The notes: generated by a model not told the origin, from the sequence alone. 64,000 nucleotides of DNA from Candidatus Omnitrophota bacterium (GCA_945877765.1 CAMDWQ010000001.1:22253-86252), one strand, 5' to 3'. Positions 18,763 to 46,519 are shown, counted from the first letter of the stretch. Program-made: numbers and translations.

Positions 18763-21219
18763 TCAAGAAACGGCGATGGTGTAGATCTTTTTGGGGACGT
18801 ACTTTTTCTGAGAAATTTTTAGGCCCCCAATGGCAGCGAGAACTTTCTCATCCTTCATTACCTGACTCTCCACTTGGGCCTCAGTAGCGGAGGCGGAAAT
18901 TGTAATTTTAGATTTTACCTTTCCGTTGACCATGATAGGGATCTCAAGCTCATCATCCTCGATGAGCGCTGGGTTGTAGATGGGCCAGGATTGATATGCA
19001 AGGCTTTCTTTATTTCCCAGGCGCTGCCAAAGCTCTTCGGCTAGGTGAGGCGCAAGCGGCGATAAAATGAGCGCAAAATCTCGCATCACCGACTTGGGCC
19101 GCACCGCTTCTTTGGACAGATCGTTGGAAAAAATCATAAGTGCTGAGATGGCGGTATTAAAAGAAAGTGTCTCAATGTCGTCACCCACTTTTTTAATCGT
19201 GCGGTGAAGCTGTTTTAAAATGGCTGGATTTGGCTCGATCTCCTGAATAGAGGTGTCAAGATTACCTTGGCGGTCAACAAAAAGACGCCAGATCCTGCCC
19301 AAAAAGCGGTAAACACCTTCCACGCCCTTCATCGACCAGGATTTCATCTGCGTCAGAGGGCCCATGAACATCTCGTACAACCTGAGACTGTCCGCACCGT
19401 ATTCGCGAACAACCTGGTCAGGATTGATTACGTTTCCTCTGGATTTGGACATTTTCTGTCCGTCCTCGCCTAAAATCATGCCTTGGTTTACTAGCTTCTT
19501 AAAGGGCTCTAAACCCGAAACTAGCTTTAAATCATAAAGCACTTTATGCCAAAAACGAGAGTAAAGCAGATGCAGCACCGCATGCTCCGCTCCGCCAACA
19601 TAAAGATCGACGGGCATCCAGTATTTTTCTTTGGCGGGGTCGCAAAAAGACTTCGAATTCTTGGGGTCGAGATAACGCAAATAATACCAGCAGGAACCAG
19701 CCCACTGGGGCATCGTATTGGTTTCCCGGTTCGCTGGTCCGGCGCATTTAGGACATTTTGTTTCCAACCACTCTTTAATCTTAGCTAGCGGCGGCTCTGC
19801 GTTGGCGCTAGGCTTAAAGTCGTTGGTTTCGGGCAAGCGAAGAGGTAAATCATTCTCATTAAGAGGCACAATGCCGCATTTGGCGCAATGAACCAGTGGA
19901 ATGGGTTCGCCCCAATAACGCTGCCGCGAAAAGAGCCAATCGCGTAGTTTGTAATTAACCATTTGCTTTCCTACGCCCTGTTTTTGGAGCCACTCGATCA
20001 TATTTTTTTTGGCTTCCGTCGTTGTCAGACCTGAAATAAAGCCGCTATTCACCGAAAGCCCCTCCCCCGTAAACGCTTTTTCGGCAACACTACCCCCGGA
20101 AACCACCTCGGTGATTTTCATCCCAAATTTTTTGGCAAATTCATAATCGCGCTCATCGTGAGCCGGCACTGCCATAATCGCACCCGTGCCATAGGTCAAT
20201 AAGACATAGTCCGCAACCCAGACAGGGATTTTTTCATCATTAACAGGATTCACCGCGTAGGCTCCGGTGAATACACCGGTCTTTTCCTTTGAAAGCTCCA
20301 TTCGTTCAAGCTCGCTTTTGGAGGCGGCTTGTTTTTGGTAGGCTTCCACCGATTTTTTTTGATCGGCCGTGGTAATTTTGGAAACTAGCGCATGTTCAGG
20401 CGAAAGAACCAAATAGGTTGCGCCAAAAAGGGTGTCTGGGCGAGTGGTAAAAACAGCCACGCCCTCCCCCCCGCCTTCAATTTTAAAACAAACCTCGGCA
20501 CCGACACTTCTACCGATCCAATTTTTTTGCATTTCCTTAACCGAGTCGGGCCAATCCACCAATTTTAAATCATCAAGCAACCGATCGGCATACGCGGTAA
20601 TCTTGAGCATCCACTGCCGCATGGGCCGCCGCACCACCGGATGACCGCCACGCTCACTCTTACCGTCAACCACCTCTTCGTTGGCAAGGACACAGCTAAG
20701 CGCCTCGCACCACCACACCGGCACCTCGGCAACATAAGCCAGCCCGCGGTGATAAAGCTGCAAAAAAATCCACTGCGTCCACCGCACATACTCCGGATCG
20801 GTAGTATCTACCTCTCGGTCCCAGTCGTAACTTAGCCCTATCGATTGGATTTGACGCCTAAAATTATCGATATTTTTCTTCGTGGTGACGGCCGGATGAG
20901 TGCCGGTCTCAATGGCGTACTGTTCGGCCGGAAGACCAAAAGCATCCCAGCCCATGGGATGCAGGACGTGATAGCCCTGCATACGCTTAAAACGGCAATA
21001 AATATCGGTCGCTGTATAGCCTTCTGGATGGCCCACATGCAAGCCAGCGCCTGACGGATACGGAAACATATCAAGCACATAAATCTTTTTAGCGGTTTGG
21101 GTAGGCGCTACGTCCGCGGTACAAAAAGTTTTGTTCTCGAGCCAGTGTTTTTGCCAGCGAGCTTCTATTTCAGAAAACGGGTAGAGTGAATCTGTCATCA
21201 TGGCGTCATTCTTCCCCAA
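18763..21219 (-). CDS. leuS: Leucine--tRNA ligase
   Basis: 818 aa. [12 protein letters not shown] (the HIGH motif), the editing CP1 domain and the KMSKS motif (QKMSKSRGN). The real start is probably M7/M8 ([17 protein letters not shown], around 21198-21201), which removes the apparent overlap with the upstream GGDEF gene. Confidence 0.9.
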
Positions 21220-22028
21220 ACTTTATTTTTTGTCTTTGGGGGATTCGCATTGGCGGAAGCGTCTTGAGAAAAGGCTCTATTTTTTCCCTGAGTTTTGGCT
21301 TGAAAAAGTGCCTTGTCGATTGTCTCAATAAATAAATTTTTATCGGTATCGGTGAGATCGTCAAAAAAATGCACTCCCATACTAACGGTGACTTTGATCG
21401 CCCGGTTCTTGACTTTAAACTCATGCTTAGCCATTGTTTTTTTAATGCGCTCAGCCACCACATGACCTGTCTCCAGTGTCGCTTCTGGCAACACGATCAA
21501 AAATTCATCCCCGCCGTACCTCCCCAAAATATCAATCGTGCGGATGCTGTGATCAAAAACTTTCGCTGACTCCTTGAGCACATAATCACCCAATAGATGC
21601 CCGTATTTGTCGTTGTACTTTTTAAAATCATCGATATCAATCATGATGCCAACGAGCGTGTGTTTGTACCGCCGGGCCCGCTCGATTTCTTTTTCAATTT
21701 CCTGGAGAATGTGACGCCGATTGTAAAAGCCGGTCAATTCATCAATGATGGATTGTTCCTTTAAAAATACATTTACTTCTTCGAGAGTTTGCTTCTGTTT
21801 GTAAAATTTGTCCAACAAGCCTCCCGAAAAAACCCCGAATAAGGCAAACACCGCTGGCGTTGATACGCCCATGTAGGCATAAAAAAAGAAATGGTGGCGA
21901 AGTTCATGGCTTAGCCACGCCAAGTTAAAAGGCGGATTCATTAGGGCATGCAAACACACCGCTCCCAGGGGCGCTCCCAGGCCCAAAAGAAAACCGCTAA
22001 CGGCGTAGTTGTGACGATGTAGACTCAT
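21198..22028 (-). CDS. Membrane-anchored diguanylate cyclase (GGDEF domain)
   Basis: 276 aa. N-terminal TM segments, then an intact GGDEF domain ([14 protein letters not shown] with a conserved upstream RxxD-like I-site region). It is transcribed divergently from the tRNA genes. Confidence 0.8.
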
Positions 22029-24807: not shown

Positions 24808-27800
24808 TTACGCCGCCTGCAATGCCATTTTGATCATCAAGCTATAGGTCTGTATCATTTCCTCGACCGCAAGCTTCATGACGGGTGGGAGGGCAAATTG
24901 CTGGAGGATTTTTAAGTCTTCCAGAAGACCCTTTAAGGCATTGATGAAATCAGGCAGGTCTTTGGGTTTAAATTCACGTCCTAATTGTTTTTGGTAGGCT
25001 TGGTAGAATTGGACAAAATAAGGATTGCTGATGCTTAGCTCTTCCAGACGGGCTTCGAAGCTAGCGAGAGTGAGAGTGGCGGGATTAAGTACGCCTCTTT
25101 CGCCAAGATCAAGAAGATAGAGAAAGCGTGTCTTGCTATTGGGCTGGTGTCTTCTGGTAGATGAGGTGACATAGACTCGCTCTGCTTTTTGATAGGTTAC
25201 TTGTAGTTCACTAAAATTTAGAACCATGAGATCTTTTTCTGTGGGGTAAAGCCTCTTTGCCTCTTTAAGCATCGCGCGGGCCTGATGACCCACGACGACA
25301 TACCTGACAAATTTGCCCCCGGGAGTGCGTCTTTCATTGTGAAGCTGGGCCACTAGAAGCTGGATGGCTAATTGAGTTACGTTTCCTTGGGGAAGCACGG
25401 CATTGGTGTTTAAAATGACCACTGCGGGCTCATTGATGAAGGATTCGGGCACATTCGCATAGAGCGTGCGGGCTTCGCGGGCGGCTTCTTCCATGATGAG
25501 CCTATAGTCGGCCAGCGACATGGTGGCGGTGGTTTGGTTGCCTTTGCGCCTTATTTTGATTTTTCTAGCGCCAATGGCTATGCCCCTGTCGGCCAAGCCA
25601 TAAAGAATTGCCTTTCCATCATCCCGGAAGACTATTTGAATGACGGAGGAGCCGATGGCGATTTGTTTATTTTCATGGACGTTTTGGGTGGTAATGACTT
25701 GGGCGATGAAGGTAATGACTTCGCCTTTTTGAATATTCACCACGGGATGGCCTTGGGTTAGCTCTAAGTTGAGTGGTCTGGGACGCCGAGCAGGGACTCT
25801 GGAAGTGGGAACGCGTTCTAGGGTTGTGGTGGCGAGGCGGGCGGCATTGGGCTTCGCCAGTCTCGCGCCATCCAACACTGTACCCCCCGTACTGTTTTTT
25901 TCTCTGATCACGTGGGCTGCGGGACTCCCAATAATATTCTTCCCCCGCTCAATGGATTCGCGAATGGTTGTAATCGGTCGGACCTGTAGAACAACAATTC
26001 GGTCATCTGCGTCCAAAGACCACTCCATGTCGATCTGAGTCCCAAAATATTCAGATAGCTTGTAAACCACTTCGGCAACCGCTTGAAGTTGTTGTTCATT
26101 GAGTGCTGGCTCAAGAGCTTGTGCGTTAGGTTCCACCTTATAGCCTCCCTGCGGCCCCAGATCTAGCAGAACCTGTTCGGTTTTAACACCTACATGAGAG
26201 TCAAGAAGTTCATATCTTCCCGAAGCGCTTGTTGTTTTTGAAAATAGATACGAATCCGGATCCTTGACAGTTTGATCCACCAGCCCTTTGGCTAACCCAT
26301 GGGCCGCATCCACTCGTATGTGATCGGCTCTCTGTTGGGCAGGATCAGCGCTGAAAGCAACGCCGGACGCTTTTGGGTTAATCATCTCATCCACCAAAAT
26401 ACTCTCAGCCCCGGATAACCAAACATCGACAACAGCTCTTGAAAGGGCCTGAATTCCGAATACGTTAAGTTTGGTCTCCTTCATTCCCGCCATCGCTTCA
26501 TCAACGCTATCTTCTTTCAATCCCGAAGAGCGCACAGCAACCGCCCCAAGCACTTTCATAGAATTCCCGATGGAACGAGAAACATCACTTGTTTCATACT
26601 TAAGTAGCAACAACTCCACTGAATCTCGCAGACTTAAAATTAAGCCATCGATAGAATGAAGCTCCTGGCTTCTTTGAAGATTTTGCTTAAACTTTAAAAT
26701 TTTAGTCTTAACTTCTGTTTTAAATTTAACTGACGTTCTTTCGTCAATGGCTATCAACCTCTCAAGATTGTTTAATTGCTTCACTGTCAAATCGCGGTAG
26801 GCAAAAGCTAGGTTGGCTTGAAGCTTAAGATCAATGCCTTTGCTTTCTTCGATTTTTTCTTGCAAGGCAGCGGAGATCTTCCAAGATTTTTCAGCTAGAT
26901 TTCCGGTATCGATTAAAGCATTTAATGATTGGTTTGCCTTTGACGTTAGTTCAAAAATATCGGCCGGGCCTTTCGCGTCTCTCACCTTGTCTACAAAACC
27001 ACTAATGGCCTGGTGGATATCAATCCTAAGATCCGCGGAAGTCTCTTCATCTGTTTTAATTAATTCCAGAATACCTGAAAAAATCGTATTCAACTGCCGC
27101 TGCCAATCATTGGCATATTCATCAATCCCTGTCATGCCCTCAAGAGAATTTAGTTCTTCAGGGTGCTCGCGAACCCTCCAAAGAAAATACTCAGTTGGCT
27201 GAATGACGAATCCTTCGGGAGTCGCGACTTGCACCGAGGAATCTATCAAGCCCCTTTCTTGAAGTTGTTTTACCGCGTAGGTTGTCTCGGCAGAATTACT
27301 ACCTTTCCCCCCTGCGATGGGCCTTGAAAAACGGTCTTTTAAATTTTCTTTCCAGACAACACCGCGGCCTTGAAGTTCTTTGATTTCGTCTTCGCGCGCT
27401 TTTTTGAGAGCGTCAATTTTAAGTTTTATTACCAAGATTTTTTCTTTGATGGTGGAGTCGCCTTCCTCACCGGTCATACCGGCAAGCTCTAACTTATTCC
27501 AAAAACTTAGAAGCACCGGCAGTTCAGATCCGCTTAACTCGACGACTGCACTTTCAACCTCAGCCGATATCTCTTTTCTGGCCGCACCAAGCCATTCCCG
27601 GCCCTTTTCGATCATCTCTGCCCTGGAGGATTGCAGCATCATCGCGGTAAATGGGTGCTTCCAATCTCCGTTTGCCGCCAGCATCGTCCGGTCAAGACGC
27701 TCTGCTTGCTTCATTAGTTTATCGGCTTCCAAAAATACTTGCTCAAAATCGTATCGTCTGGCATATTTTTTTTGTTCTATATATTGATGAAATTTTTTCA

Positions 27801-30800
27801 AATCTGCCTGAAATTGGTCGATCAATTCTCCCGCCTGACTTCTCACAAATTCCAAAATTGTGCTTCTTATGACTGGGTTTTCTGAAAGTTGGGTCAATAA
27901 GGACTCGATGCTATCGGACGGAAGTACCGCGCCTCCCAAAATTTGATCCAACAGCGCTCTCACCAGGTTCTGATTTGAGATCCTAGAAATAATATTCCCC
28001 AGAATATTCACGTCTTTGGGTAGAATCTCATAGGATGCTTTCGTTTCCATTCTTTCCTTCCACATCAAGTACTCCGTATACTTTATGACCGTTTCACCAC
28101 TCAAGTCATCGGCTCCCGCAATAAAATAAAGGGTGCCTTGATTAGCGTCTAAATAGACCAAATCTCCATCATGAACCTCACAGGTAGTTTGTTTTGCGTC
28201 AGCTATCGCATGAAATACTATTTCTTTTCCACCAACCTCTATCTTCATCTCTGTTGTATCGGCGGTATAAGTCTTAAAGCGCAGGACTTGGTTATGCACT
28301 GAAGCTCCATTAAAAATAACAGCGGGCTTTCGATTTTCACGCGCCCGTATAGCCGCATGAGATAATGAGCCGCCTGTAGTAATCGCAACTCCGTTTGCGG
28401 CGGCAATGCTCGGATCATCCTCATTGTCGGTATAGTCGGCAATCAAAATTCCGTTTTTAAACTCGTCCGCACTTCTTCCTGTTTGCTTAAATCGGGCAAA
28501 ACCGATCGCCTTGCCAAGATTCAAACGCACTCCACCCAAAGAAACTGCGCTGATACCACGCCTTTGATTTGGTCTTTCCAATAATTGCTTTTTTTTAAAT
28601 GGTCCCGTCATACGATTTAATAGATGCTCATTAGAAATAGCAGAAAAAATACCCCGTGCCCCGTCAGGACTATTGGCTGCTCCAGCCAAACGAGCCCCGC
28701 TCATCTGGACGGCAAGCGACTCAAACCATTCCCGAAATGCGCTAGTGGAGGCAAAGCCTTGCGGCAACAAGAGCTCTTCTAAGTCATAGGGACTAAGCTT
28801 GTTATTAACTAATTCTCTTTTCCGGAATAAATCATATCTCCGTTGATTCATAAAAAATTCTCCCAAAATTGCCGTACCCAGAACAAACTGGGAAGATTTC
28901 GTGTCTTTCAAGACATAAAACGTGATCTGATCTCCTAAAGCAGCAAGCTTCAATTCTTCGACAAGATAAGGACCGACTTCTCCGATGGTCGTGCGAGAAC
29001 AAAAAGATTGGAGTGATCGAGCAATCGCCGCCACCTGACGCATGTAAATAATCTGAAGTTGGTCGGCTTTGTAGGCGGCCTCGATTAGCCGAGCGACTGG
29101 GAAGTTACGAGCCGAAGCTTCTTGGTAAGCAGCATCAAATTTATAATTCCCATCATCAATCACAACTAACGCTCCTCTAGAAATGAGAGTCTGGATGCCG
29201 TGACTGATAAAATCCATCATCCTTTGACCGCTTGGCATACCATCAGGCACTTCTATCCCAAGAGCCACGGCCAGTGCTTCTACTTGTTTGACAGCGGCCG
29301 GCAGTGGCGTCGGCACCATCACCGAATCTTTATCGCTTCGCAAGAGATAACCATTGGCGACGAATTCAGAAGTTAGGTCCGAAGCATTTACATGGGGGGA
29401 GCGATTAATAGCGAGGTCAAGATCGAGAGTTGAAGTAACCACTTGTACTGCAAAATTCAGCTTCTCGGGAAGATCCGCTATAGAGGATGCGCCATGATCT
29501 TTATCAAAAACTGCTTCCATATGATATCCATCCCTGCTGACCATAAAACCAGCCGCTTCAAACGCATCACAAATACTTCTAAAACGCGTGCTGTTACCAG
29601 GCTCATAGATTTTCTCGATATTATCCATATAGCTCACCAAAATTCGGCCCTCCTCCTGGACAGGCAGAAGCGAAAAATGGATGGCCGCGCTATGAAGACC
29701 CAGCTTAAGACCGATCAACGCTGTATTTTCATCCGCCATGACAAGAGCGTTGGAGGGATCGAAAAAACGTGAATTCTTATGCCTTAATTGATTCAGCGAA
29801 AAAGCCTGGGTAACAGCAAGAACCGCTATTGAGTGCTCTTGCTGTGGTTTTTGTCGAGCGTCGAGATATTTGACATTGACCTGGGTCCTCGAGTCAGCAG
29901 AGCTGACCATACACGTAGACACTCTCTGGCTCCCACCGGAGGGCATAACACCTCCCAGATTTCTCACACCTTTTTGATGGACAATGTTGATTAGTTCGGC
30001 GAAGGAAACGGCTTCATCACTAATCGGCGTTCCACTACCGATAAAAGCTATGTAGTCACCCAAATTGATACTCCTAACTCGGGTCTCGTAACCCTCGGCA
30101 GGGGCAACCGTCAGCCGAGAGGATTTTTTAGAATCAAACAACTGCATCATTGCTTCAATGGATGGTTGGATAGCGTGTGCTTTTCCAGGAAGCGACCGAA
30201 GACTGTCCATAGCACCCTCTACTTCATGCCGGATATTTAAAAATAACTTTGCGATGGACCTCCCCCCTTGAAGATCTGACGATTCCTTGGCAATAGAATC
30301 CAAACTTTTCCCAGGAGGCTGCCCCTTGAAAAGCACCTCGTAAGACAGCACCATCAACTGCATGGTATCTAACAAAGCTAAAATATCCTCCGGAGACTTG
30401 TTGGGCTTGCCAAGTTTTTGCAGGACCTCAGAATTTAGTTTTTCAAAATCGCGGTACATGGCCATGACTCGTTGCGCCTCAGGGTTAGCCGTCGGGGTAT
30501 CTACCATTGGCACAAAAGCGTATTCGACGGGTATAACACGTCCCGTATGGTAGTCAATTTCCCGATGTAAAAAAGAACTCAATTGTTTGAAATCTGGTTT
30601 TCCATAAACCTGTGGAACGGGAACATTTCTATTTAACTTGCCGTAAATTTCTGAAAGAGCCAAGAGGGCTTGTTCGCTTCCGTTGTTAACTTTTGTCTTT
30701 AGAATTAGATAGATTTCAGCTTGTTGAGGAGAATTTAAAAAGACGTAGGCGGCGCCTAGGGCTAGGAGGACGACTCCATTCCCGCTGTTAACTTGTGCCT

Positions 30801-33800
30801 TTAGAATTGGATAGATTGCAGATTGTTGGGAGAGAGTTAAAGAGGCGTAGATAGGGCCTAGGGCCCGGAGGGCATATTGATTTCCGTTTTCAGCTTGTGT
30901 CTTTAGAATCGGGTAGACTTCAGATTGTTGGGAAGAAGTTAGAGAAGCGTAGGCGGAGCCTAGGGCTTGGAGGGCAATTTCCTGCCCAGTTTTAGCCTCT
31001 GTCCTGAAGAGCGTATAGATTTCGGATTGTTGGGAAGAAGTTAGAGAAGCGTAGGCGGAGCCTAGGGCTAGGAGGGCGCGCCCACTTCCACTTTCAGCTT
31101 TTGTCTTTAGAATTATAAAGATTTCAGATTGTTGGGAAAGGGTTAAAGAGGCGTAGGCGAGTCCTAGGGCCCGGAGGACTACTTCGCTTCCTTTATCAAC
31201 TATTGTCTTTAGAGTTGCATAGATGTCGACTTGTTGGGCAGAGGTTAAAGAGGCGTAGGCGAGTCCTAGGTCCCAGAGGGCGAATTCATTTTCTTCGTCT
31301 GCTCCTGTCTTTAAAGTTGCGTAGATGTCAAGTTGTTGGGCAGAGGTTAAAGAGGTGTAGGCAGAGCCCAGAGCTAGGAGCGACGAACTGTATTTAAGAT
31401 CAACGGCATTTGTTTTCAAAAAGTCATAAAGCTTTTGAAAATCCGCCATCACTTCATCAGGATTTGAGATCTGTGGGGTTGCTTTGGTTTCCACAGGTGT
31501 GACCGGGGTCATGGTATTTAACTTGCCGTAAATCTTTGAAAGGGCCCAGAGGGCATCTCCATCACCTTTGTCAGCTTTTGTTCTTAGAATTGTGTAAATA
31601 TCAGATTGTTGGGAAGAAGTTAAAGAGGTATAGGCGAATCCTAGGGCTACGTCGGCGCCAGAATTTCCTTTTTCAGCTCCTGTCTTTAAAATTGGGTAGA
31701 TTTCAGATTGTTGCGAAGTAGTTAAAGAGGCGTAAGCGGCTCCTAGGGCTCGAAGGGCAGTTCCATAACCTTTACCAGCTTCTGTCTTTAGAATTGCATA
31801 GATTTCAGATTTTTGAGAAGGGGTTAAAGAGGCGTGGGCGAAGCCTAGGGCTTCGTGGGAAAATACACTTTTATTGTCAGCTTCTGTTTTTAGAATTGGA
31901 TAGATTTCGGATTGTTGGGAAAATGCTAAAGAGGCGTAGGCAAGGCCTAGGGCCCAGAAGGCATCTCCACTTCCACTGCCAGCTTCTGTCTTTAGAATTG
32001 GATAGATTTCGGATTGTTGGGAAGGAGTTAAAGAAGCGTAGGCGGAGCCTAGGGCTAGGAGGGCGTCTCCATTTCCTTTATCAACTTCTGCCTTTAGAAT
32101 TGGATAGATTTCGGATTGTTGGAAAAGAGTTAATGAAGCGTAGGCGGGGCCCATGGCTAGGACGGCATCTTTATTTTCTTTGTCAGCTTTTGTCTTTAGA
32201 ATCAGGTAGACTTCGGATTTTTGGGAAGGGGTTAATGAGGCGTAGGCGCAGGCTATTCCAGTGCCAGGGTTTGCCTTTAAAATTGGATAGATTTCGGATT
32301 GTTGGAAAAGAGTTAAAGAAGCGTAGGCGGAGCCTAGGGCATACAGGCCATTTGAATTTCCATTTTTAGCTTGCGTCTTTAGAATCAGATAGACTTCAGA
32401 TTTTTGGGAAGGAGTTAAAGAAGTGTAGGCGGAGCCTAGGGCTAGGAGGGCGTGTCCATTTCCGTCTTCAACAGCAGCTTTTTTCAAAGAGTCATAATGC
32501 TTTTGAAAATCCTCCCTCACTTCATCAGGGTTTGAGATCTGTGGGGTTGCTTTGGTTTCCACAGGTGCAGCCGAGGTTATGGTATCTAGCTGGCCGCCAA
32601 TCCCTGAAAGAGCCAAGAGAGTTTGTTCATATCCACTGTCAGCTAGTTGCTTTAGAATCGGAAAGGCTTCGGATTGTTGGGAAGGGGTTAAAGAGGTGTA
32701 GACAGATCTTAGGGCTTCGAGAGCATTTAAATTTCCTTTTTCAGCTTGTGTCTTTAGAATTAGGTAGACTTCAGATTGTTGAGAAAGAGTTAAAGATGCG
32801 TAGGCGGAGCCTAGGGCTTGGAGATTGGAAGCACTGGGCGGTTTCATGATGACAGACGGCCGAATCATCTTATAAAGCCCCCAAATAGTTGCACAAGTGG
32901 CAAACAAAACAGCGATAGAAAAGAACATGTAGTTGGCAACTGTCATTAAAACATTTTCTTCTTTTGGCTTTTCCAGTTTGGCTTCTTTGTCGGATGTAAT
33001 ATTTTCATTGGGCTGAGAATTCGATTCTTTATCAGACTGAATATTTTTTCCGGTTTGAGGATAGCTGACTATCTGATCCACCGCTTCTCCTTGCGCTTTG
33101 GTATCGCCAAAATACTTTTTAATGCTGGGGGAAGGCTTGGTTTTTTCATCGGCTGACGGTTGAGATGAATCCTGCTGCGCTAAAGATTGGGACGCAAGCG
33201 GCACAGAGAAGCCCAGCAAAACAGCACCCGATAAAATCAGGTGCCTAAACATTTCTCCGGCTGAATTTTTAGGGTGGTTTGTCTTCGCAACACGTGCGTC
33301 GCCATTCGACGATCCCCCATTATCTGCCAGCCGGGCAGCATTCATCGAATAGACTGCTCCCGCCAAAATATCTTTTTTGATATTTTGAGCTTTTGCCGTA
33401 GCAGCCATCCTACCCTGTCCCATAACATAGGCAGTCATATCCATTTTAGCGGCCACAGTGCTTACCACTGGCTGTTTTACATTCACGGATATCTGACCCA
33501 AAAGTATTTCCTCATACCTCTTAATATTCGTCTCATGCGTCACCTCGGGAATAATAGAGATGTAGGAAATGTTCCTTTGTTTTAAAAGATACTTAAGATT
33601 GGGTGTGTGATAGCCGCCGGTGATGAGGATAGCGCCTGCCTGCCGGCTAGGCAGGGATTTTGAATCTTGGATGGCGGATATATTTTTCAGAAAAACTTTA
33701 TCTCTCTCATAAGTTAGCTCATAGAATTTTTTACAGAGATTCGCCATATCTGTGAAATCTTCCTTAAGAAAAATCGCTTTTTCATAATGACCTTTTAAAA

Positions 33801-35076
33801 CCATGAGCTTTTGATTTAGAAAACCTGAGAGAGTTTTAATATCCGCAAAATCCTCTTTTTTGAATTCTTCATATTCTTCGGGAGTCAGGGACAGGTGAAA
33901 TAGTTTTTTATAAAACTCTAAAACTTTGATAGAAAGAAGAAGCTTGGACTCATCCTCATTGGTAGTGAAATTCTTAAAAATCTGGTCTTCCAGAGCTTTC
34001 TTTTCCGATAGGAGGTCTTTGGGGCTCAGAGAATTTGATTTTTCAAGGTATGCGAAATATTTAAATAACTCAGGGTATTTTGTTGTGCCTTTTAATTTTT
34101 CTTTCAAATATAGAAAAAATCCTTTTTGTGAATCTTTCATGGACAGCTTTGAGGCGGATTGGCCGCTTAACTCCCTTTGATCCTCCGCACCTAAAGATTC
34201 AATCGCTTTTTGTTGCTCTAGGCTTGCATCTTTAAAGTCAATTTTGGATTCAAAATTTTTAAGTTCTTTTAATTTCAGAAGATTCGGGAAATGGTTCAAA
34301 TCAATATTTAAAACATTAGCTTGGAGAAAAAGTGCATCGACATAGTCGGAGAAACTGGTTTCATCCTTTTTTGCTTTGTTATACTTCTCAAGGAATGACA
34401 AAAGAAATGGGTTTAGAAGCTTTGGTTTTAGGACTTCAATCGTAGATTCGATTTCCTGCAGATAGCTTTCGAAACGGTCCCTTTTTTTGATGCTTTGTTT
34501 ATAAACTTGTAGAGACTTAAAATAAAGATTCGGATCTTCAACTCCCACAACTTTAAAATTGTGATCGCTGGTCAGATCGAGATATTCAATTCCATGAAGA
34601 AGCCCTTTCTGTAAATATTCTTTGGCAATATTCTGTCTTTTGGACAAAGAAGCTCTGTCTCTTAAAAAAGTAAGATTGGCATTGCCATTGGCAGCCTCGG
34701 TGAAGACGGTATCTGCTATTCCGTTTTGGAATAATAGATCGAAGAGTTTGGCTTCGTTTAACTGGCATGAGGAATTGGTGTGAGCGTCTTGGATGAGGAT
34801 GATGGTTTCGGAGGGGCTAGACCCCTGTGGTATCTGGTAGGCGTCTTCGATGGTCGCTACTGATTCAGGGATTGGAGGAAGTAGCTTTTTAGCCCATTCC
34901 AGATTCTTTTGTTTTTCCCCCCTATCCTCCGTCCTCCATCCTAAATCCATCTTTCGAAGCTCAGGTGCCGAATAAGAAAACTCTTGAATTATTAGGCATA
35001 AAATTAGCGTGAGCGAGAGGCTCTTAAGAAAGACCGTTCGTGTCGTCTTTTTGACGATGCGGGGGCTATTTATCAT
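24808..35076 (-). CDS. Giant (3422 aa) membrane-anchored multidomain protein: TIKI/TraB-like N-domain, ~20 HEAT/PBS-lyase-like 35-aa repeats, PEP-utilizing-enzyme phosphohistidine swivel domain, and PEP-synthase/rifampin-phosphotransferase-like ATP-grasp domain
   Basis: A single uninterrupted 10,269-nt ORF. The N-terminus has a signal peptide/TM (VFLKSLSLTLILCLIIQEF), and a second TM lies at ~aa 712-738 (MFFSIAVLFATCATIWGLY). About aa 748-1480 are tandem ~35-aa repeats (ALGSAYASLTPSQQSEIYPILKTEAxKGNxxAL). At ~aa 2225-2320 TTGGSLSHAAIRARENRKPAVIF...HDGDLVYLDANQGTLYF is a strong match to the PEP-utilizers mobile domain with the catalytic His. At ~aa 2575-3036 AGGKGSNSAE, AVRSSGLKEDSVDEAMAGMKETKLNV, IDMEWSLD and VLQVRPIT give a PPDK_N/PpsA ATP-grasp nucleotide-binding domain. 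No PEP/pyruvate TIM-barrel domain is present. Domain assignments are from motif recognition only. Confidence 0.8.
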   Translation of the reverse strand: MINSPRIVKKTTRTVFLKSLSLTLILCLIIQEFSYSAPELRKMDLGWRTEDRGEKQKNLEWAKKLLPPIPESVATIEDAYQIPQGSSPSETIILIQDAHTNSSCQLNEAKLFDLLFQNGIADTVFTEAANGNANLTFLRDRASLSKRQNIAKEYLQKGLLHGIEYLDLTSDHNFKVVGVEDPNLYFKSLQVYKQSIKKRDRFESYLQEIESTIEVLKPKLLNPFLLSFLEKYNKAKKDETSFSDYVDALFLQANVLNIDLNHFPNLLKLKELKNFESKIDFKDASLEQQKAIESLGAEDQRELSGQSASKLSMKDSQKGFFLYLKEKLKGTTKYPELFKYFAYLEKSNSLSPKDLLSEKKALEDQIFKNFTTNEDESKLLLSIKVLEFYKKLFHLSLTPEEYEEFKKEDFADIKTLSGFLNQKLMVLKGHYEKAIFLKEDFTDMANLCKKFYELTYERDKVFLKNISAIQDSKSLPSRQAGAILITGGYHTPNLKYLLKQRNISYISIIPEVTHETNIKRYEEILLGQISVNVKQPVVSTVAAKMDMTAYVMGQGRMAATAKAQNIKKDILAGAVYSMNAARLADNGGSSNGDARVAKTNHPKNSAGEMFRHLILSGAVLLGFSVPLASQSLAQQDSSQPSADEKTKPSPSIKKYFGDTKAQGEAVDQIVSYPQTGKNIQSDKESNSQPNENITSDKEAKLEKPKEENVLMTVANYMFFSIAVLFATCATIWGLYKMIRPSVIMKPPSASNLQALGSAYASLTLSQQSEVYLILKTQAEKGNLNALEALRSVYTSLTPSQQSEAFPILKQLADSGYEQTLLALSGIGGQLDTITSAAPVETKATPQISNPDEVREDFQKHYDSLKKAAVEDGNGHALLALGSAYTSLTPSQKSEVYLILKTQAKNGNSNGLYALGSAYASLTLFQQSEIYPILKANPGTGIACAYASLTPSQKSEVYLILKTKADKENKDAVLAMGPAYASLTLFQQSEIYPILKAEVDKGNGDALLALGSAYASLTPSQQSEIYPILKTEAGSGSGDAFWALGLAYASLAFSQQSEIYPILKTEADNKSVFSHEALGFAHASLTPSQKSEIYAILKTEAGKGYGTALRALGAAYASLTTSQQSEIYPILKTGAEKGNSGADVALGFAYTSLTSSQQSDIYTILRTKADKGDGDALWALSKIYGKLNTMTPVTPVETKATPQISNPDEVMADFQKLYDFLKTNAVDLKYSSSLLALGSAYTSLTSAQQLDIYATLKTGADEENEFALWDLGLAYASLTSAQQVDIYATLKTIVDKGSEVVLRALGLAYASLTLSQQSEIFIILKTKAESGSGRALLALGSAYASLTSSQQSEIYTLFRTEAKTGQEIALQALGSAYASLTSSQQSEVYPILKTQAENGNQYALRALGPIYASLTLSQQSAIYPILKAQVNSGNGVVLLALGAAYVFLNSPQQAEIYLILKTKVNNGSEQALLALSEIYGKLNRNVPVPQVYGKPDFKQLSSFLHREIDYHTGRVIPVEYAFVPMVDTPTANPEAQRVMAMYRDFEKLNSEVLQKLGKPNKSPEDILALLDTMQLMVLSYEVLFKGQPPGKSLDSIAKESSDLQGGRSIAKLFLNIRHEVEGAMDSLRSLPGKAHAIQPSIEAMMQLFDSKKSSRLTVAPAEGYETRVRSINLGDYIAFIGSGTPISDEAVSFAELINIVHQKGVRNLGGVMPSGGSQRVSTCMVSSADSRTQVNVKYLDARQKPQQEHSIAVLAVTQAFSLNQLRHKNSRFFDPSNALVMADENTALIGLKLGLHSAAIHFSLLPVQEEGRILVSYMDNIEKIYEPGNSTRFRSICDAFEAAGFMVSRDGYHMEAVFDKDHGASSIADLPEKLNFAVQVVTSTLDLDLAINRSPHVNASDLTSEFVANGYLLRSDKDSVMVPTPLPAAVKQVEALAVALGIEVPDGMPSGQRMMDFISHGIQTLISRGALVVIDDGNYKFDAAYQEASARNFPVARLIEAAYKADQLQIIYMRQVAAIARSLQSFCSRTTIGEVGPYLVEELKLAALGDQITFYVLKDTKSSQFVLGTAILGEFFMNQRRYDLFRKRELVNNKLSPYDLEELLLPQGFASTSAFREWFESLAVQMSGARLAGAANSPDGARGIFSAISNEHLLNRMTGPFKKKQLLERPNQRRGISAVSLGGVRLNLGKAIGFARFKQTGRSADEFKNGILIADYTDNEDDPSIAAANGVAITTGGSLSHAAIRARENRKPAVIFNGASVHNQVLRFKTYTADTTEMKIEVGGKEIVFHAIADAKQTTCEVHDGDLVYLDANQGTLYFIAGADDLSGETVIKYTEYLMWKERMETKASYEILPKDVNILGNIISRISNQNLVRALLDQILGGAVLPSDSIESLLTQLSENPVIRSTILEFVRSQAGELIDQFQADLKKFHQYIEQKKYARRYDFEQVFLEADKLMKQAERLDRTMLAANGDWKHPFTAMMLQSSRAEMIEKGREWLGAARKEISAEVESAVVELSGSELPVLLSFWNKLELAGMTGEEGDSTIKEKILVIKLKIDALKKAREDEIKELQGRGVVWKENLKDRFSRPIAGGKGSNSAETTYAVKQLQERGLIDSSVQVATPEGFVIQPTEYFLWRVREHPEELNSLEGMTGIDEYANDWQRQLNTIFSGILELIKTDEETSADLRIDIHQAISGFVDKVRDAKGPADIFELTSKANQSLNALIDTGNLAEKSWKISAALQEKIEESKGIDLKLQANLAFAYRDLTVKQLNNLERLIAIDERTSVKFKTEVKTKILKFKQNLQRSQELHSIDGLILSLRDSVELLLLKYETSDVSRSIGNSMKVLGAVAVRSSGLKEDSVDEAMAGMKETKLNVFGIQALSRAVVDVWLSGAESILVDEMINPKASGVAFSADPAQQRADHIRVDAAHGLAKGLVDQTVKDPDSYLFSKTTSASGRYELLDSHVGVKTEQVLLDLGPQGGYKVEPNAQALEPALNEQQLQAVAEVVYKLSEYFGTQIDMEWSLDADDRIVVLQVRPITTIRESIERGKNIIGSPAAHVIREKNSTGGTVLDGARLAKPNAARLATTTLERVPTSRVPARRPRPLNLELTQGHPVVNIQKGEVITFIAQVITTQNVHENKQIAIGSSVIQIVFRDDGKAILYGLADRGIAIGARKIKIRRKGNQTTATMSLADYRLIMEEAAREARTLYANVPESFINEPAVVILNTNAVLPQGNVTQLAIQLLVAQLHNERRTPGGKFVRYVVVGHQARAMLKEAKRLYPTEKDLMVLNFSELQVTYQKAERVYVTSSTRRHQPNSKTRFLYLLDLGERGVLNPATLTLASFEARLEELSISNPYFVQFYQAYQKQLGREFKPKDLPDFINALKGLLEDLKILQQFALPPVMKLAVEEMIQTYSLMIKMALQAA
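30636..32835 (-). repeat. Intragenic tandem repeat array (~105-bp unit, ~20 copies) encoding the HEAT-like repeats of the giant protein; it contains a higher-order duplication
   Basis: The plus strand shows recurring blocks such as ctttagaattggatagatttcggattgttgggaaRgagttaaagaRgcgtaggcggagcctagggct with 105-nt periodicity. The larger protein segment PVETKATPQISNPDEV occurs twice (aa ~838 and ~1193), indicating block duplication. The many spurious plus-strand ORFs at 31203-32849 are antisense artefacts of this periodicity. Confidence 0.8.
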
Positions 35077-42836: not shown

Positions 42837-44591
42837 TTAATTTTTCCAAGAGGTAAGAGCAACAGGAAAAGGCTCTCCTGGCCGGGCCAAGTAATACCCC
42901 TGCCCAAGATTGATGCCGCACATACGGGCCGCCTCACACTCTTCCCGGCTCTCAATCCCCTCCGCTACCGTGGTCGCGCCAATTCCTTTGGCAAATAAAA
43001 TTAGCGACATAAGAATCTGCTGTTTTGTTGTACTAACATCAATCTGACGAATCAATGAGCGGTCAAACTTAATGTAATCAGGCTTGAGTTGAGCAACATC
43101 CCTTAAACTTACTGCCCCGCCACCGACATCATCAATGGCAACCGAAACACCCTGCTCCTTAAGTTCTGCCAGCGCAACACGAATCTTATCAAATGAACGC
43201 AAAATGCTCTGTTCGGTAATCTCAATGACAATATTCTTAAAACCAATCGCCCCTTTGTCCTTAAAAAGCTTGCTCATTTCTGCACGATCCAGGAGCGTTT
43301 CATGATTAAGATTTAGAAATAACTTCAGGTTCTGCGCCATCGCTTGGGCTCGCTTCAGAGCAAACTCTACGCACATGCAATCCAGCTCTTTGACATGGTT
43401 CGTTTGCCGGGCCATCCCGAAAAGTGTGGAAGCTTCGTTGGACGGGTAATGAAGGATGGGTCTTGAAAGCGCTTCATAACCCACCACGCACTTCTGCTTA
43501 AAATCCACCAGCGGCTGATAAAGCGTCTGTATTTTTTTTTCTTTTAAAATCGCATAAAAAAAAGCCGCGTACTGATCGGGATTGGTGGTCGATCCGGGAA
43601 TAACCACGCTCTTCATATTTCCAGGAAAATGAACTTCGTGGGTATTTTCGGGGGTCGCTTTTACGGATTTTTTTTGAATCGGACGGTACAGCGAATAACA
43701 ACTCCCGGGCATCGTACGCATGGTTTTGGCAAGCTCCCCGGCGATACAGCTTATTTCTGACGCCTCCTTGAAACTAATTTTGGCGTTATCTACGACAGCC
43801 GCTGAAAGACTCATAATTGGAAACCGCTTGAGCTCACCCTCTGAGTTACGCTGCACTAGGTGACCGCGCTCACGATCCTCGGTATCATAGAAGCCTGCAA
43901 CCTCCGAGTCAAAATTTTGAATCACCGCTTCGCATAGGGGCACTGAACATTCCGGCGTTGTCAAAATAATAAAATCATCTCCCCCTAGATGGCCCAAAAA
44001 ATTCTTGGGCTCCCCATAAAGACGGATCGCTTTTTTTAGGATTTCACTGGTACGGATAATGATTTCATCGCCGCGAGAGTCGCCGTAGGCCTTATTAAAG
44101 GCGGCCAGGCCCGTCAGATCAATACAAACAACGGAGTATTTTTTTTTCGATTCAATCGCCTGCTCTAAACGTAGAATCGTGGAGCGCGTTCCTGGTAAAT
44201 GGGTAAGAGGATTGACATCCATCTCGTTAGAACTTTTTTTAAGAACTTGGCGAATAGATCCAGCCAGGAACTTAACGTCATTACTTTTTTCAAAAAAATC
44301 CTCAATCACCATCATTTCTTTAATTAAAAGCGTTTCCTTCTTCTCTAATACAAGCACAATTGGAATGTATTTGAGCACGATGTCTTGTTTGAAACTAAGA
44401 GCTAACTGTTTTCCCTTGAGTCCATCATGAGCTTCATCCACAACAATCAGATGGGGCACTTCATCAAATACTGCCTGAAGAATCCCTTCTTTTTTGGGAT
44501 TAAAAATCTCAAAAACCGTCTTGCCAAGATTTTTGACAAGCGATTTAAGCAGTCCCTTGTCGTCTGTGACGACCAAAATCTTAGTTTTCAT
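42837..44591 (-). CDS. REC - degenerate GGDEF - EAL protein (likely c-di-GMP phosphodiesterase with regulatory GGDEF)
   Basis: 584 aa. N-terminal receiver-like domain (KILVVTDD, LIVVDE). The GGDEF domain signature reads HLGGDDF (Arg to His and Glu to Asp replacements), so it is probably catalytically impaired. The EAL domain has GYEALSRP and DDVGGG, with the catalytic Glu present. Confidence 0.75.
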   Translation of the reverse strand: MKTKILVVTDDKGLLKSLVKNLGKTVFEIFNPKKEGILQAVFDEVPHLIVVDEAHDGLKGKQLALSFKQDIVLKYIPIVLVLEKKETLLIKEMMVIEDFFEKSNDVKFLAGSIRQVLKKSSNEMDVNPLTHLPGTRSTILRLEQAIESKKKYSVVCIDLTGLAAFNKAYGDSRGDEIIIRTSEILKKAIRLYGEPKNFLGHLGGDDFIILTTPECSVPLCEAVIQNFDSEVAGFYDTEDRERGHLVQRNSEGELKRFPIMSLSAAVVDNAKISFKEASEISCIAGELAKTMRTMPGSCYSLYRPIQKKSVKATPENTHEVHFPGNMKSVVIPGSTTNPDQYAAFFYAILKEKKIQTLYQPLVDFKQKCVVGYEALSRPILHYPSNEASTLFGMARQTNHVKELDCMCVEFALKRAQAMAQNLKLFLNLNHETLLDRAEMSKLFKDKGAIGFKNIVIEITEQSILRSFDKIRVALAELKEQGVSVAIDDVGGGAVSLRDVAQLKPDYIKFDRSLIRQIDVSTTKQQILMSLILFAKGIGATTVAEGIESREECEAARMCGINLGQGYYLARPGEPFPVALTSWKN

Positions 44592-46519
44592 ATCGCCTCA
44601 TCTATTTTTACAATAATCAATGTAATGTCATCATGTTGCTCGGCTTTCCCCATAAATTGATCGAGGTCCTCCACGACCCGCTTGGCAATATTTTCTGCCG
44701 TCTCTGAGCGTCCAATAGCCAGAACCTTCTGAAGTCTCTGCACATCGTATTCTTCCTTACGACGATTTCTTGCCTCGCTAACCCCATCCGAATAGAAAGC
44801 AAATGCATCGCCCGCATGGAGCGGATAGGTGGAATTAGCAAAGGCGACTCCCTCCATCACCCCAATGGGCATCCCCTCTTCGGCGCTCAGAAGCTGGCTA
44901 ACACCAGAAATACTCACAGCCGCTACCGGCAAGTGGCCTCCATTAGAAAGCATCATTTTTTTGTCCACTAGGTCAAATATCGCATAACTCATCGTCACAA
45001 ACAAGCCCCCCGTTGTTTCGGAGGCGATGGCATTGTTCACCTGCTCTAGAGCACCGGCTGGTTCCTGACGGTCACGCGCAGAAAACTTAAATTCAGAGAC
45101 TGTTTTTGCCATAAAAAGAGCAGCGGGAGTGCCCTTACCGGAAACATCGCCCACCATGACACCAATCTTGCCTTCGGGTGCTAGATTTACAAACGAGTAT
45201 AAATCGCCGCCAACAGCCTTGGCGGGTCTAAAATGCACAGCGATCGAGAGGCCTTTGACTTGCGGCATGGACTCAGGCAAAAAACTCTTTTGTATTTGGC
45301 TGGCAATTTTAAGCTCGCTTTCTATCAGCTCTCGTTTTTTCATTTCTAAAAGAACGCGTGAGAGCGTGGTGCTGGCATAGAGCGCCGCAAACACCACCAT
45401 TGGATAAAAAAGATCGATCCACCAACCCGCCGTGCAAAACAATATAACGGACACTACGGCAAAAAAGCTCATGACACTCAACGCGCCTAAAAGCGCTCGG
45501 GCAGGCTTAAAACCAGCGGAGATACGATTGATTAAAAAACCAACCAAAACTAGAAGCGCTAAATTAATCCCGCGGCTAGCTCGATGGATAAAATCCCTTT
45601 GAAGGATATCGTTTAAAATATTGGCATAGGAACCTACCATGGGATAAACCGATTGAATCGGTATCGGGCTGGTATCGTGCGAACCTTGTGACGTCAAACC
45701 CACGATACAAATTTTTCCTTTTAACAAATTCAAATCAATGCGGGGTTTCCGGCCCTCTGCCGCCTGAGCATAGGAATAAATAACGTCCAGATAGGAATAA
45801 TGCTGAAATGTCGTTTCCCAGGATCCGGCATAAGTGATGATAAAGCAGCTATCTTCATCTAAGGGAATACGGTGAGCGGGTGAAAGCTCAATGCATTGCC
45901 CCGGTTTGAATATTATGCTTTCCTCACCCTGGCCCACTAAATCGGCAGCCGCGCGAAAAGCTAATTGAAAATAATTTTTTCCTTCAAAGGAGATGACCGG
46001 TACCGTACGGCGTCGCTTACCGTCTATATCCGCCTTGGCATTCACGAATCCCACGCCTTTTGCCGCCTGCCGATACCCGGGCACAAGATCGGATTCTAAA
46101 CGCGTGGCTGTAAAAATATTTTTGCGGCGCTTAGGGTCTGCAAACGCGAAAGCAAAGTAAATATTTTGAGCTTTTTTGGCGGCATCAATCACCGCCTGAT
46201 CGTGCTCCCGCGGGTCGGCAAATAGAATATCAAATAGGACAGCTTTGGCACCGGACTGCTCAAGCACTTGAATTAAATTTGCATGATATTCGCGGTCAAA
46301 CGGCCAAGCACCCAGTTCTTTCAATGAATCATTCCATATATCAATCAGGATTATTTCGCTGCTTACAGGGCGAGGCCCGCGAAGTTGGCAGCGCCAATCA
46401 AAAGTCTGAAGCTCGTAAAGCTCAAAGCTGCGAAAATAAGACCCAAGCGCTGCCAATAGCAAGGCAAATACAACAAGGACATACCACGTATATTTTCTAG
46501 AAAACGACAGGAATCCCAA
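44588..46519 (-). CDS. CHASE2 sensor domain - PP2C/SpoIIE-type serine phosphatase (RsbU-like input phosphatase)
   Basis: 643 aa. N-terminal TM plus a periplasmic CHASE2-like region, then TM helices. The C-terminal PPM phosphatase has VGDVSGKG, LFVTMSYAIFD and YSDGVSEA. Its start overlaps the downstream REC-GGDEF-EAL gene by 4 nt. Confidence 0.75.
   Translation of the reverse strand: MGFLSFSRKYTWYVLVVFALLLAALGSYFRSFELYELQTFDWRCQLRGPRPVSSEIILIDIWNDSLKELGAWPFDREYHANLIQVLEQSGAKAVLFDILFADPREHDQAVIDAAKKAQNIYFAFAFADPKRRKNIFTATRLESDLVPGYRQAAKGVGFVNAKADIDGKRRRTVPVISFEGKNYFQLAFRAAADLVGQGEESIIFKPGQCIELSPAHRIPLDEDSCFIITYAGSWETTFQHYSYLDVIYSYAQAAEGRKPRIDLNLLKGKICIVGLTSQGSHDTSPIPIQSVYPMVGSYANILNDILQRDFIHRASRGINLALLVLVGFLINRISAGFKPARALLGALSVMSFFAVVSVILFCTAGWWIDLFYPMVVFAALYASTTLSRVLLEMKKRELIESELKIASQIQKSFLPESMPQVKGLSIAVHFRPAKAVGGDLYSFVNLAPEGKIGVMVGDVSGKGTPAALFMAKTVSEFKFSARDRQEPAGALEQVNNAIASETTGGLFVTMSYAIFDLVDKKMMLSNGGHLPVAAVSISGVSQLLSAEEGMPIGVMEGVAFANSTYPLHAGDAFAFYSDGVSEARNRRKEEYDVQRLQKVLAIGRSETAENIAKRVVEDLDQFMGKAEQHDDITLIIVKIDEAI

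Follow-up and report, generated by a model that had tools for sequence, protein, structure and literature searches.

A candidate GWD-type 'X, water dikinase' cassette in a 3,422-residue protein of a Candidatus Omnitrophota bacterium

A 64,000-nt stretch of DNA from a Candidatus Omnitrophota bacterium (GCA_945877765.1 CAMDWQ010000001.1:22253-86252; hereafter, the window) was analysed around a segment, 25968-28404, that had been flagged earlier from the sequence alone as a circularly permuted phosphoenolpyruvate (PEP)-synthase-like module, with a phosphohistidine swivel domain encoded upstream of an ATP-grasp domain. The segment lies entirely within a single minus-strand open reading frame (ORF) of 3,422 codons, 24808..35076, and the public protein P0004 (ENA assembly ERZ27280294, a 96-kb contig) is identical to the ORF product except that it starts at Met43. 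From sequence, predicted structure and analogy, we consider it about 70% probable that the flagged DNA is the core of a GWD-type 'X, water dikinase' acting in cis within a membrane-associated protein. The functional unit reaches upstream of the flagged segment and includes a conserved domain at aa 1535-2112, here called the mid domain.

Exactly two curated domains were detected when the whole 3,422-aa product was scanned against Pfam. PEP-utilizers (PF00391) was the only family assigned to the upstream His segment, at aa 2208-2312 (nt about 28141-28455; E 2.2e-10, 40.4 bits, gathering cut-off 23.1), and PPDK_N (PF01326) matched in two stretches, of which the best was aa 2892-3042 (E 5.5e-34, 118.4 bits, cut-off 27). 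The swivel (aa 2208-2312) is placed about 350 residues upstream of the ATP-grasp domain (from GGK 2589-2591 to about aa 3050), essentially where the original prediction had put the two domains. The catalytic His was correctly located in SLSHAAI (aa 2237-2243), where it is His2240 with codon CAT at 28357-28359, and GGKG occupies aa 2589-2592 (27301-27312). When all PDB sequences were searched with phmmer, the ATP-grasp domain of Listeria rifampin phosphotransferase (RPH) 5fbs (chain 58-317) aligned to aa 2796-3039, and the swivel at the C-terminus of the same enzyme (chain 757-839) aligned to aa 2172-2254, so the order of swivel and ATP-grasp is reversed relative to RPH. This confirmed that the His-before-ATP-grasp order in the ORF is real, far beyond chance.

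The single-chain AlphaFold2 model of aa 2150-3060 (pLDDT 82.9, pTM 0.78) contained a beta-rich swivel that carries an additional beta-hairpin, some eight long helices (aa about 2328-2570), and an ATP-grasp domain whose helical sub-domain is enlarged (aa about 2650-2835). Foldseek comparison of this model with the PDB retrieved RPH 5hv1 (E 4e-12), PpsA 2ols and HpeI 9goj; the isolated RPH ATP domain 5hv6 and the PPDK phosphoryl-carrier domain 2fm4 were matched with TM-target values of 0.68 and 0.72, respectively, and the PPDK_N region also matched 1kbl structurally. A weak second His-containing stretch, IIGSPAAHVIRE, had been pointed out after the ATP-grasp domain. It is present at aa 3048-3059, but we rejected it as the real swivel: across 21 homologues the position of its His is taken by R, S, G, N, Q and others, no profile matched it, and it is not a domain. 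The conventional order, with a swivel after the ATP-grasp domain, does not apply here.

Table 1 Features of the ORF product and malic enzyme genes beside relatives (nucleotide positions are those of the window unless a contig is named)
Feature	Residues (aa)	Position (nt)	Strand	Basis or remark
Whole ORF, 3,422 aa + stop		24808..35076	-	ORF call; public gene call P0004 = 3,380 aa, from Met43 (nt 34950)
Signal-peptide-like N-terminus, hydrophobic segment aa 12-33	1-36	34969..35076	-	Hydropathy scans
Conserved N-terminal domain, motifs IQDAH and GGYHT	about 45-560	33397..34944	-	blastp
ARLA linker motifs	578-585, 2125-2132, 3068-3083	33322-33345, 28681-28704, 25828-25875	-	
Weaker hydrophobic stretch, ahead of the transmembrane segment	611-636	33169-33246	-	Hydropathy
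Strong transmembrane segment	708-735	32872..32955	-	Hydropathy
Two blocks of 34-aa repeats (LGSAYASLTxSQQSEIYPILKT...)		30637..32829	-	Tandem Repeats Finder, 102-nt period
Mid domain, putative acceptor-side phosphotransfer domain	1535-2112	28741..30474	-	
Phosphohistidine swivel with beta-hairpin insertion	about 2172-2325	28102..28563	-	Pfam, PDB phmmer, alignment, AlphaFold2, Foldseek
Conserved all-helical domain	about 2328-2570	27367..28095	-	AlphaFold2 model helices H179-H419; conserved in family
ATP-grasp (PPDK_N)	about 2573-3050	25927..27360	-	Pfam, NCBIfam, PDB phmmer, alignment, AlphaFold2, Foldseek
Enlarged helical insertion within ATP-grasp	2650-2835	26572-27129	-	
C-terminal region, ending ...MIKMALQAA	3090-3422	24811..25809	-	
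Malic enzyme genes beside relatives		L011 8787-9236; L012 10670-12934; L015 4687-6966; L017 10776-13025; L016 5965-6360		L011 and L016 partial

The order of these domains was compared with that of characterised dikinases. In PpsA and PPDK the ATP-grasp domain is followed by the His domain and a TIM barrel, and in RPH it is followed by the RIF-binding domain and then the His domain (PMC4844700). GWD and PWD have carbohydrate-binding modules (CBMs), a central domain, the His domain (931-1050) and the ATP domain (1069-1387) in this order, and pivoting of the GWD His domain is supported by small-angle X-ray scattering (PMC13553574). Two-component dikinases carry the substrate domain and swivel on HpeH and the ATP-grasp domain on HpeI (PMC12167813). 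The term circular permutation therefore holds formally against the RPH order, but not against that of PpsA/PPDK. The order found here is the GWD type, which is already known, and the reversal alone is not new.

As a description of function, 'PEP-synthase-like' did not survive the analysis. The PEP-utilizers_C TIM barrel (PF02896) was found nowhere in 3,422 aa at E<=1, nor in segment scans at E<=5, and the PpsA/PPDK equivalogs stayed far below their cut-offs (NF005057, 112 bits vs 598; TIGR01418, 101 vs 740; TIGR01828, 18 vs 843); a PpsA/PPDK function was rejected on these two grounds. PpsA/PPDK (EC 2.7.9.2 / 2.7.9.1) and the protein studied here have in common the ATP-grasp domain, the swivel with its catalytic His and, presumably, the phosphohistidine chemistry, whereas the barrel and the domain order set them apart.

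To find relatives, 1.84 billion representatives were searched exhaustively with HMMER, which gave 7,076 matches, 29 of them at E<1e-30. One of the 29 is the identical public protein P0004, and the rest are 23-44% identical and 573-6,362 aa long; most of these distant relatives are giants, and those whose source could be identified come from Omnitrophota metagenome-assembled genomes. The impression of a near-orphan, left by a word-indexed search with aa 2101-3103 that had returned only three canonical PpsA-like proteins, was overturned by this result. Sub-domain blastp showed one and the same cassette layout in every protein at E<1e-30 with both domains: first mid1/mid2 (aa 1480-2130 here), then the His swivel, a helical region, the GGK part of the ATP-grasp domain, a helical insertion and, last, the C-terminal half of the ATP-grasp domain. 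The whole cassette is present twice in P0028, P0029 and P0031 (4,324-5,030 aa). We then counted domain orders in 153 fetched proteins, a sample biased to this query, and 49 were His-first and 98 grasp-first. This count, together with plant and algal GWD and with HpeH and HpeI read end to end, speaks against regarding the arrangement as unusual. A neighbour-joining (NJ) tree of the C-terminal half of the ATP-grasp domain, made without bootstrap, contained one split that separated all 48 His-first sequences from 97 of the 98 grasp-first ones, which suggests, but does not prove, one old rearrangement. The sequence comparisons thus support the His-before-grasp order as a genuine inherited architecture in the cassette family. 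This was one of two options that the original prediction had offered; the other, a swivel working in trans or with a different partner, is disfavoured by strict co-occurrence and by the confident single-chain model.

It is accordingly very unlikely that the swivel serves a partner in trans while the ATP-grasp domain acts independently as a ligase- or kinase-type domain. The helical domain of about 245 residues sets the two unusually far apart, and two-component dikinases do have swivel and ATP-grasp on different polypeptides (PMC12167813). However, every member not cut at a contig end has both domains in fixed order, duplicated cassettes included, the two active sites are invariant together, the helical domain between them is conserved as well, and the pTM of the single-chain model would indicate a defined mutual arrangement.

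Alignment of 22 His-to-grasp segments (A1) showed eleven positions invariant in 22/22 sequences: H2240, G2589, K2591, R2849, S2850, S2851, E2855, D2856, E3018, Q3031 and R3033. The key residues of the ATP-grasp domain are K2591, R2849, D3016, E3018, Q3031 and R3033, and their D-x-E ... Q-x-R pattern also fits the Mg/ATP ligands of PPDK. In the alignment to 5fbs, invariant columns correspond to RPH Lys22, Arg117, Glu297 and His825. Mutagenesis of RPH showed that Lys22 and Arg117 are required for the ATP-side reaction, and in the RPH structure Glu297 coordinates Mg2+, yet the Glu297Ala variant remained active (PMC4844700). RPH was the top match, by sequence and by structure, to the ATP-grasp domain as well as to the swivel, and these three residues and the carrier His are conserved. 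The order here is a circular permutation of that of RPH, however, the RIF-binding domain is absent, and the RPH equivalog NF041857 reached 90.7 bits against a cut-off of 999. Invariance of the key catalytic residues at only 23-44% overall identity points to purifying selection on catalysis. Decayed domains are frequent in giant multidomain proteins, and predicted export of some relatives would remove the ATP supply; but given this invariance, we regard a degenerate, catalytically dead module that is a structural part of a giant surface protein as extremely improbable.

The more interesting result adjoins the flagged coordinates, where a conserved and confidently modelled domain has no detectable relative. 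The mid domain was found directly upstream of the swivel in all 17 sequences of a second alignment (A2), in which 16 polar or glycine positions do not vary (N, Y, H, Q, D, R, G, K) and the motifs HQKG (H1700), Y-x-DAR, G-x-HSA (H1795) and DKD (D1858, K1859) occur. AlphaFold2 modelled it (pLDDT 85.9, pTM 0.83) as a helical bundle (aa about 1535-1630), an alpha/beta region (1690-1900) and a beta-domain (2025-2100). Pfam scans of all 17 members gave no shared match, a profile search of the PDB gave no match, Foldseek against the PDB had a best E of 0.058 and no RPH match, and comparison of the mid profile by hhalign with substrate regions from 49 canonical-order (grasp-first) relatives of 780-930 aa gave a probability of 0.2%. 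A profile HMM built from A2 recognised the giant-type members at E 1e-59 to 1e-232 and also matched, at E 1e-14 to 1e-36, thirteen shorter proteins (1,480-1,940 aa), each with the order mid, His, grasp. Among these shorter proteins are P0041, from a Holophagae metagenome-assembled genome (MAG) and annotated merely as 'PEP/pyruvate-binding domain-containing protein', P0050, P0052, P0087, P0124 and P0147. H1700, Q1701, H1795, D1858, K1859 and D1887 are conserved in both subfamilies. The mid-His-grasp family can be defined by HQ[KR]G, H[SP]A and DK[DE] motifs directly upstream of a swivel, with an ATP-grasp domain downstream, and all of these features are present here. A scan of GTDB genomes for the mid domain gave six loci, of which three were in Candidatus Omnitrophota MAGs and the others were labelled uncultured bacterium or Planctomycetales. 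The mid domain would correspond in position to the domain that binds the acceptor in GWD, RPH and HpeH, and it is probably where the second active site of a not yet characterised dikinase family lies.

Based on homology with PPDK, RPH and GWD, the following catalytic cycle is proposed. The C-terminal ATP-grasp domain (aa 2573-3050) would bind MgATP via K2591, R2849, D3016/E3018 and Q3031/R3033. His2240 would then attack the beta-phosphate, the gamma-phosphate would leave as Pi, and AMP would depart to give His2240~P. The swivel would turn to the mid domain, and the phosphate would pass to the acceptor at a site formed by the conserved H1700/Q1701, H1795 and D1858/K1859, a role suggested by the position and conservation of this domain. 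The net reaction, presumably carried out in cis by one cassette, would be ATP + acceptor + H2O -> AMP + acceptor-P + Pi.

Among known enzymes, this scheme comes closest in layout to GWD and PWD (EC 2.7.9.4 / 2.7.9.5), which have the same order of acceptor-side (central) domain, His domain and C-terminal PPDK_N ATP-grasp domain, are also large multidomain proteins with N-terminal accessory or binding modules and no PEP-binding TIM barrel, and would share the presumed reaction ATP + X + H2O -> AMP + X-P + Pi via a pivoting phosphohistidine (PMC13553574, PMC11986951, PMC5575247). Other features differ. The mid domain is predicted to be alpha/beta plus helical bundle, whereas the GWD central domain is all-helical (PDB 9HA9 / 9QVI), and no relation between them was detected; the His-ATP linker is short in GWD, whereas a conserved 245-aa helical domain stands in its place here; and the present protein is bacterial, membrane-associated by prediction and 3,422 aa long, with no starch context. 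The plant GWD motifs CFATC and SHVSVRAR were not found among the top 150 HMMER matches. Pfam gave no match to carbohydrate-binding modules in the product, a search in which only CBM20 was strictly tested and from which CBM45 may be missing as a Pfam family. What differs from GWD is the acceptor-side domain, which is unrelated as far as can be detected, the conserved 245-residue helical domain, the lack of a CBM match, and the bacterial giant-protein setting. The two-component enzymes HpeHI, CreHI and phenylphosphate synthase PpsAB have the same substrate, His, grasp order when read end to end, and HpeI 9goj was among the top structural matches. They differ in having two polypeptides instead of one fused chain, in their aromatic-catabolism gene context, which is lacking here, and in a RIF-BD-like substrate domain with no detectable relation to the mid domain (the hhalign value given above, obtained against the substrate regions of those 49 relatives of 780-930 aa).

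Several observations weigh against the assignment as a GWD-type dikinase. The helical domain between swivel and ATP-grasp is much longer than the linkers of GWD or PPDK, and because of this long spacer, the reach of the swivel to both sites is only a proposal. The split in the NJ tree has no bootstrap values, and the two His-first subfamilies are not clearly grouped by mean identity. No relative of known function was detected for the mid domain by any of the four methods used (Pfam, PDB profile, Foldseek, hhalign). Finally, several relatives have, by crude hydropathy, only a signal-like N-terminus and no later transmembrane segment ahead of the cassette.

The shorter relatives offered an experimental entry point toward the acceptor. 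In 5/5 readable mid-domain relatives of 1,480-1,700 aa (P0041, P0147, P0050, P0124 and P0101), a malic enzyme gene lies directly downstream, and its start often overlaps the stop of the mid-domain gene by 4 nt. A complete MaeB-type gene (malic + Malic_M + PTA_PTB) is present in three; for P0041 and P0101 only the N-terminal malic domain is on the contig. A literature search on a dikinase-maeB gene pair found nothing relevant. Malic enzyme makes pyruvate, and a module that interconverts pyruvate and PEP as in PEP synthase/PPDK, with the mid domain as a non-homologous pyruvate-binding site, would fit such a pairing. The best NCBIfam and PDB sequence matches do carry the name PEP synthase, and West-Roberts et al. 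read such domains as interconverting pyruvate and phosphoenolpyruvate (bioRxiv 10.1101/2023.11.21.568195). We nevertheless judge PEP formation quite unlikely, and it is kept alive only because of the maeB linkage: there is no PF02896 barrel, the equivalog scores and the domain order are those described above, the homology to PpsA is confined to two domains common to all superfamily dikinases, and no malic enzyme gene turned up next to the giant gene or in the remaining ORFs of the window that were scanned.

The same linkage can be read in another way, as the mark of a regulatory autophosphorylating kinase or phosphorelay like VadK of Mycobacterium tuberculosis, in which phosphorylation would stop at His2240~P or go on to a protein, be it elsewhere in the same giant chain, in a partner enzyme or in prey, with no metabolite or polymer as acceptor. 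VadK is derived from PPDK, autophosphorylates and interacts with metabolic enzymes (PMC13400623), and the relatives are translationally coupled to malic enzyme. In addition, a gene for an LMWPc phosphatase follows P0025, a mid-domain relative closer to the giant type (L018 10776-11891), LMWPc is fused (aa 740-800) in P0135, a His-first protein that is more distant and lacks the mid domain, and the window is rich in signalling genes. This reading is unlikely, though somewhat less so than PEP formation. The large conserved mid domain with its invariant His, Asp, Lys and Arg resembles the dedicated second active sites of GWD, RPH and HpeH, and Pfam detected no receiver or HPt domain in the product. 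Moreover, a protein acceptor would be compatible with a GWD-type dikinase as well, and the difference lies mainly in the nature of the acceptor.

The membrane side of the cassette was considered from hydropathy. Relatives with a signal-like N-terminus and no later transmembrane segment are predicted to export an ATP-dependent enzyme. In the present protein, the cassette could be on either side of the membrane, because a signal-like segment is combined with a strong transmembrane segment (aa 708-735) and a weak stretch (aa 611-636), and the side hinges on whether the latter spans the membrane. Export would make sense only with delivery into another cell, which is conceivable for Omnitrophota. 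The preprint by West-Roberts et al. on Omnitrophota giant proteins ('Archaeovorins') reports PPDK_N as frequent in them and reads it as pyruvate/PEP interconversion (bioRxiv 10.1101/2023.11.21.568195). These giants share with the present protein the Omnitrophota host, the long multidomain layout, transmembrane segments, TPR-like repeats and PPDK_N; those highlighted in the preprint differ in length, at roughly 40,000-85,000 aa about ten times the 3,422 aa found here. The glycosyl hydrolase, glycosyl transferase and peptidase domains of 'Archaeovorins' were not detected by Pfam in the 3,422 aa, and the mid, His, grasp cassette and its order are not described in the searched passages of that preprint.

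A broader picture may be drawn tentatively, and we hold it to be doubtful as a whole. The mid-His-grasp cassette could represent an unrecognised, widespread bacterial 'X, water dikinase' family whose acceptor site is of a new type. In Omnitrophota it would be built into giants that bear a signal peptide, are exported or delivered to host or prey cells, and use foreign ATP there on a polymer or protein; the ancestral form, cytoplasmic and with a metabolic or regulatory role, would be seen in the shorter maeB-coupled relatives. If true, this would be a bacterial counterpart of starch phosphorylation within an epibiotic or predatory lifestyle. More narrowly, the PPDK_N domains of Omnitrophota giants and of many bacterial 'PEP/pyruvate-binding domain-containing proteins' are probably not PEP-forming and likely phosphorylate something else, which would correct a likely mis-annotation of PPDK_N-bearing giants. 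The analysis also defines a catalytic cassette (His2240, the ATP-site residues, and the candidate acceptor-site residues H1700, H1795, D1858 and K1859) in very large proteins of almost wholly obscure function, and it indicates that uncharacterised bacterial proteins commonly have the GWD-type order, for which the only characterised examples so far are the starch dikinases of phototrophs.

In the immediate neighbourhood, a YhcG/DUF1016 nuclease gene lies downstream of the ORF, and a divergent ORF and addAB lie upstream. The signalling genes of the window encode GAF-HD(HD_5), GGDEF, GGDEF-EAL and CHASE2-SpoIIE phosphatase proteins (7597-8820, 21198-22028, 42837-46519). The window also encodes addAB, comEC, GSIII and leuS, none of them obviously linked to the giant gene, and PADLOC defence models gave no match. 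The LeuRS of the window shares 72-76% identity with proteins named from Omnitrophota/Omnitrophica MAGs, which, with the MAG loci of the mid domain, places the window in an Omnitrophota bacterium. The LMWPc-dikinase linkage of the relatives recalls GWD and its phosphoglucan phosphatases. Ahead of the gene for another relative, P0006 (3,984 aa), lie pilM, three small genes, a gene for a GspD-like secretin, and RNase E/G (L019 1-5032). This fits a remark in the preprint that giant genes in Omnitrophota follow secretion loci resembling those of type II secretion systems and type IV pili; no pilM/secretin-type locus adjoins the present gene in the window.

Upstream of the cassette, aa 1-36 form a predicted signal-peptide-like segment, judged from hydropathy. 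The public gene call from Met43 loses this peptide, and we favour the upstream ATG because homologues retain a signal-like N-terminus before the N-terminal domain. By blastp, that domain is common to P0005, 6, 8, 10, 13, 14, 18-20, 24, 28, 29, 32 and 63, and it stands behind a signal-like peptide, with its IQDAH...GGYHT motifs, in at least 13 relatives; it had no Pfam match and no meaningful match among PDB sequences. Each of the two blocks of 34-aa repeats is introduced by PVETKATPQISNPDEV. The repeats matched no curated Pfam repeat family and may be candidate binding or scaffold modules; they also give rise to a spurious repetitive ORF of 191 aa on the opposite strand, 31794-32369 (+).

The C-terminal region (aa 3090-3422) had no Pfam match and no meaningful PDB sequence match. 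Its tail, ...MIKMALQAA (24811-24840, minus), has a helix followed by an x-[A/S]-A ending that is common to 15 other full-length relatives within P0005-P0032, whose tails read TATAA, IARSA, ISIAA, EASA (two), ALQSA, ASAA, AAASA, AQAA, ESAA, LAAA, LLASA (three) and SRAA. Such A-x-A-type tails resemble either a degron of the SsrA ..LAA type or a non-polar sorting signal at the C-terminus. Other relatives (P0009, P0011, P0012, P0015, P0016, P0017 and P0027) have no A-x-A tail and end directly after the ATP-grasp domain in a different conserved motif, GGIDFNP..L.L......(I/V)P(I/V)IINI.P...L..FLG. The linker motif [G/A]-ARLA occurs in four copies at three module borders of the present protein (NAARLADNGG, SGARLAGAAN and DGARLAKPNAARLATT), and RSELRS or RSEVRS is found at equivalent borders in relatives, with both motif types in P0018 (RSELRSARLGLSTAR). 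These motifs may be candidate processing sites or conserved inter-module linkers.

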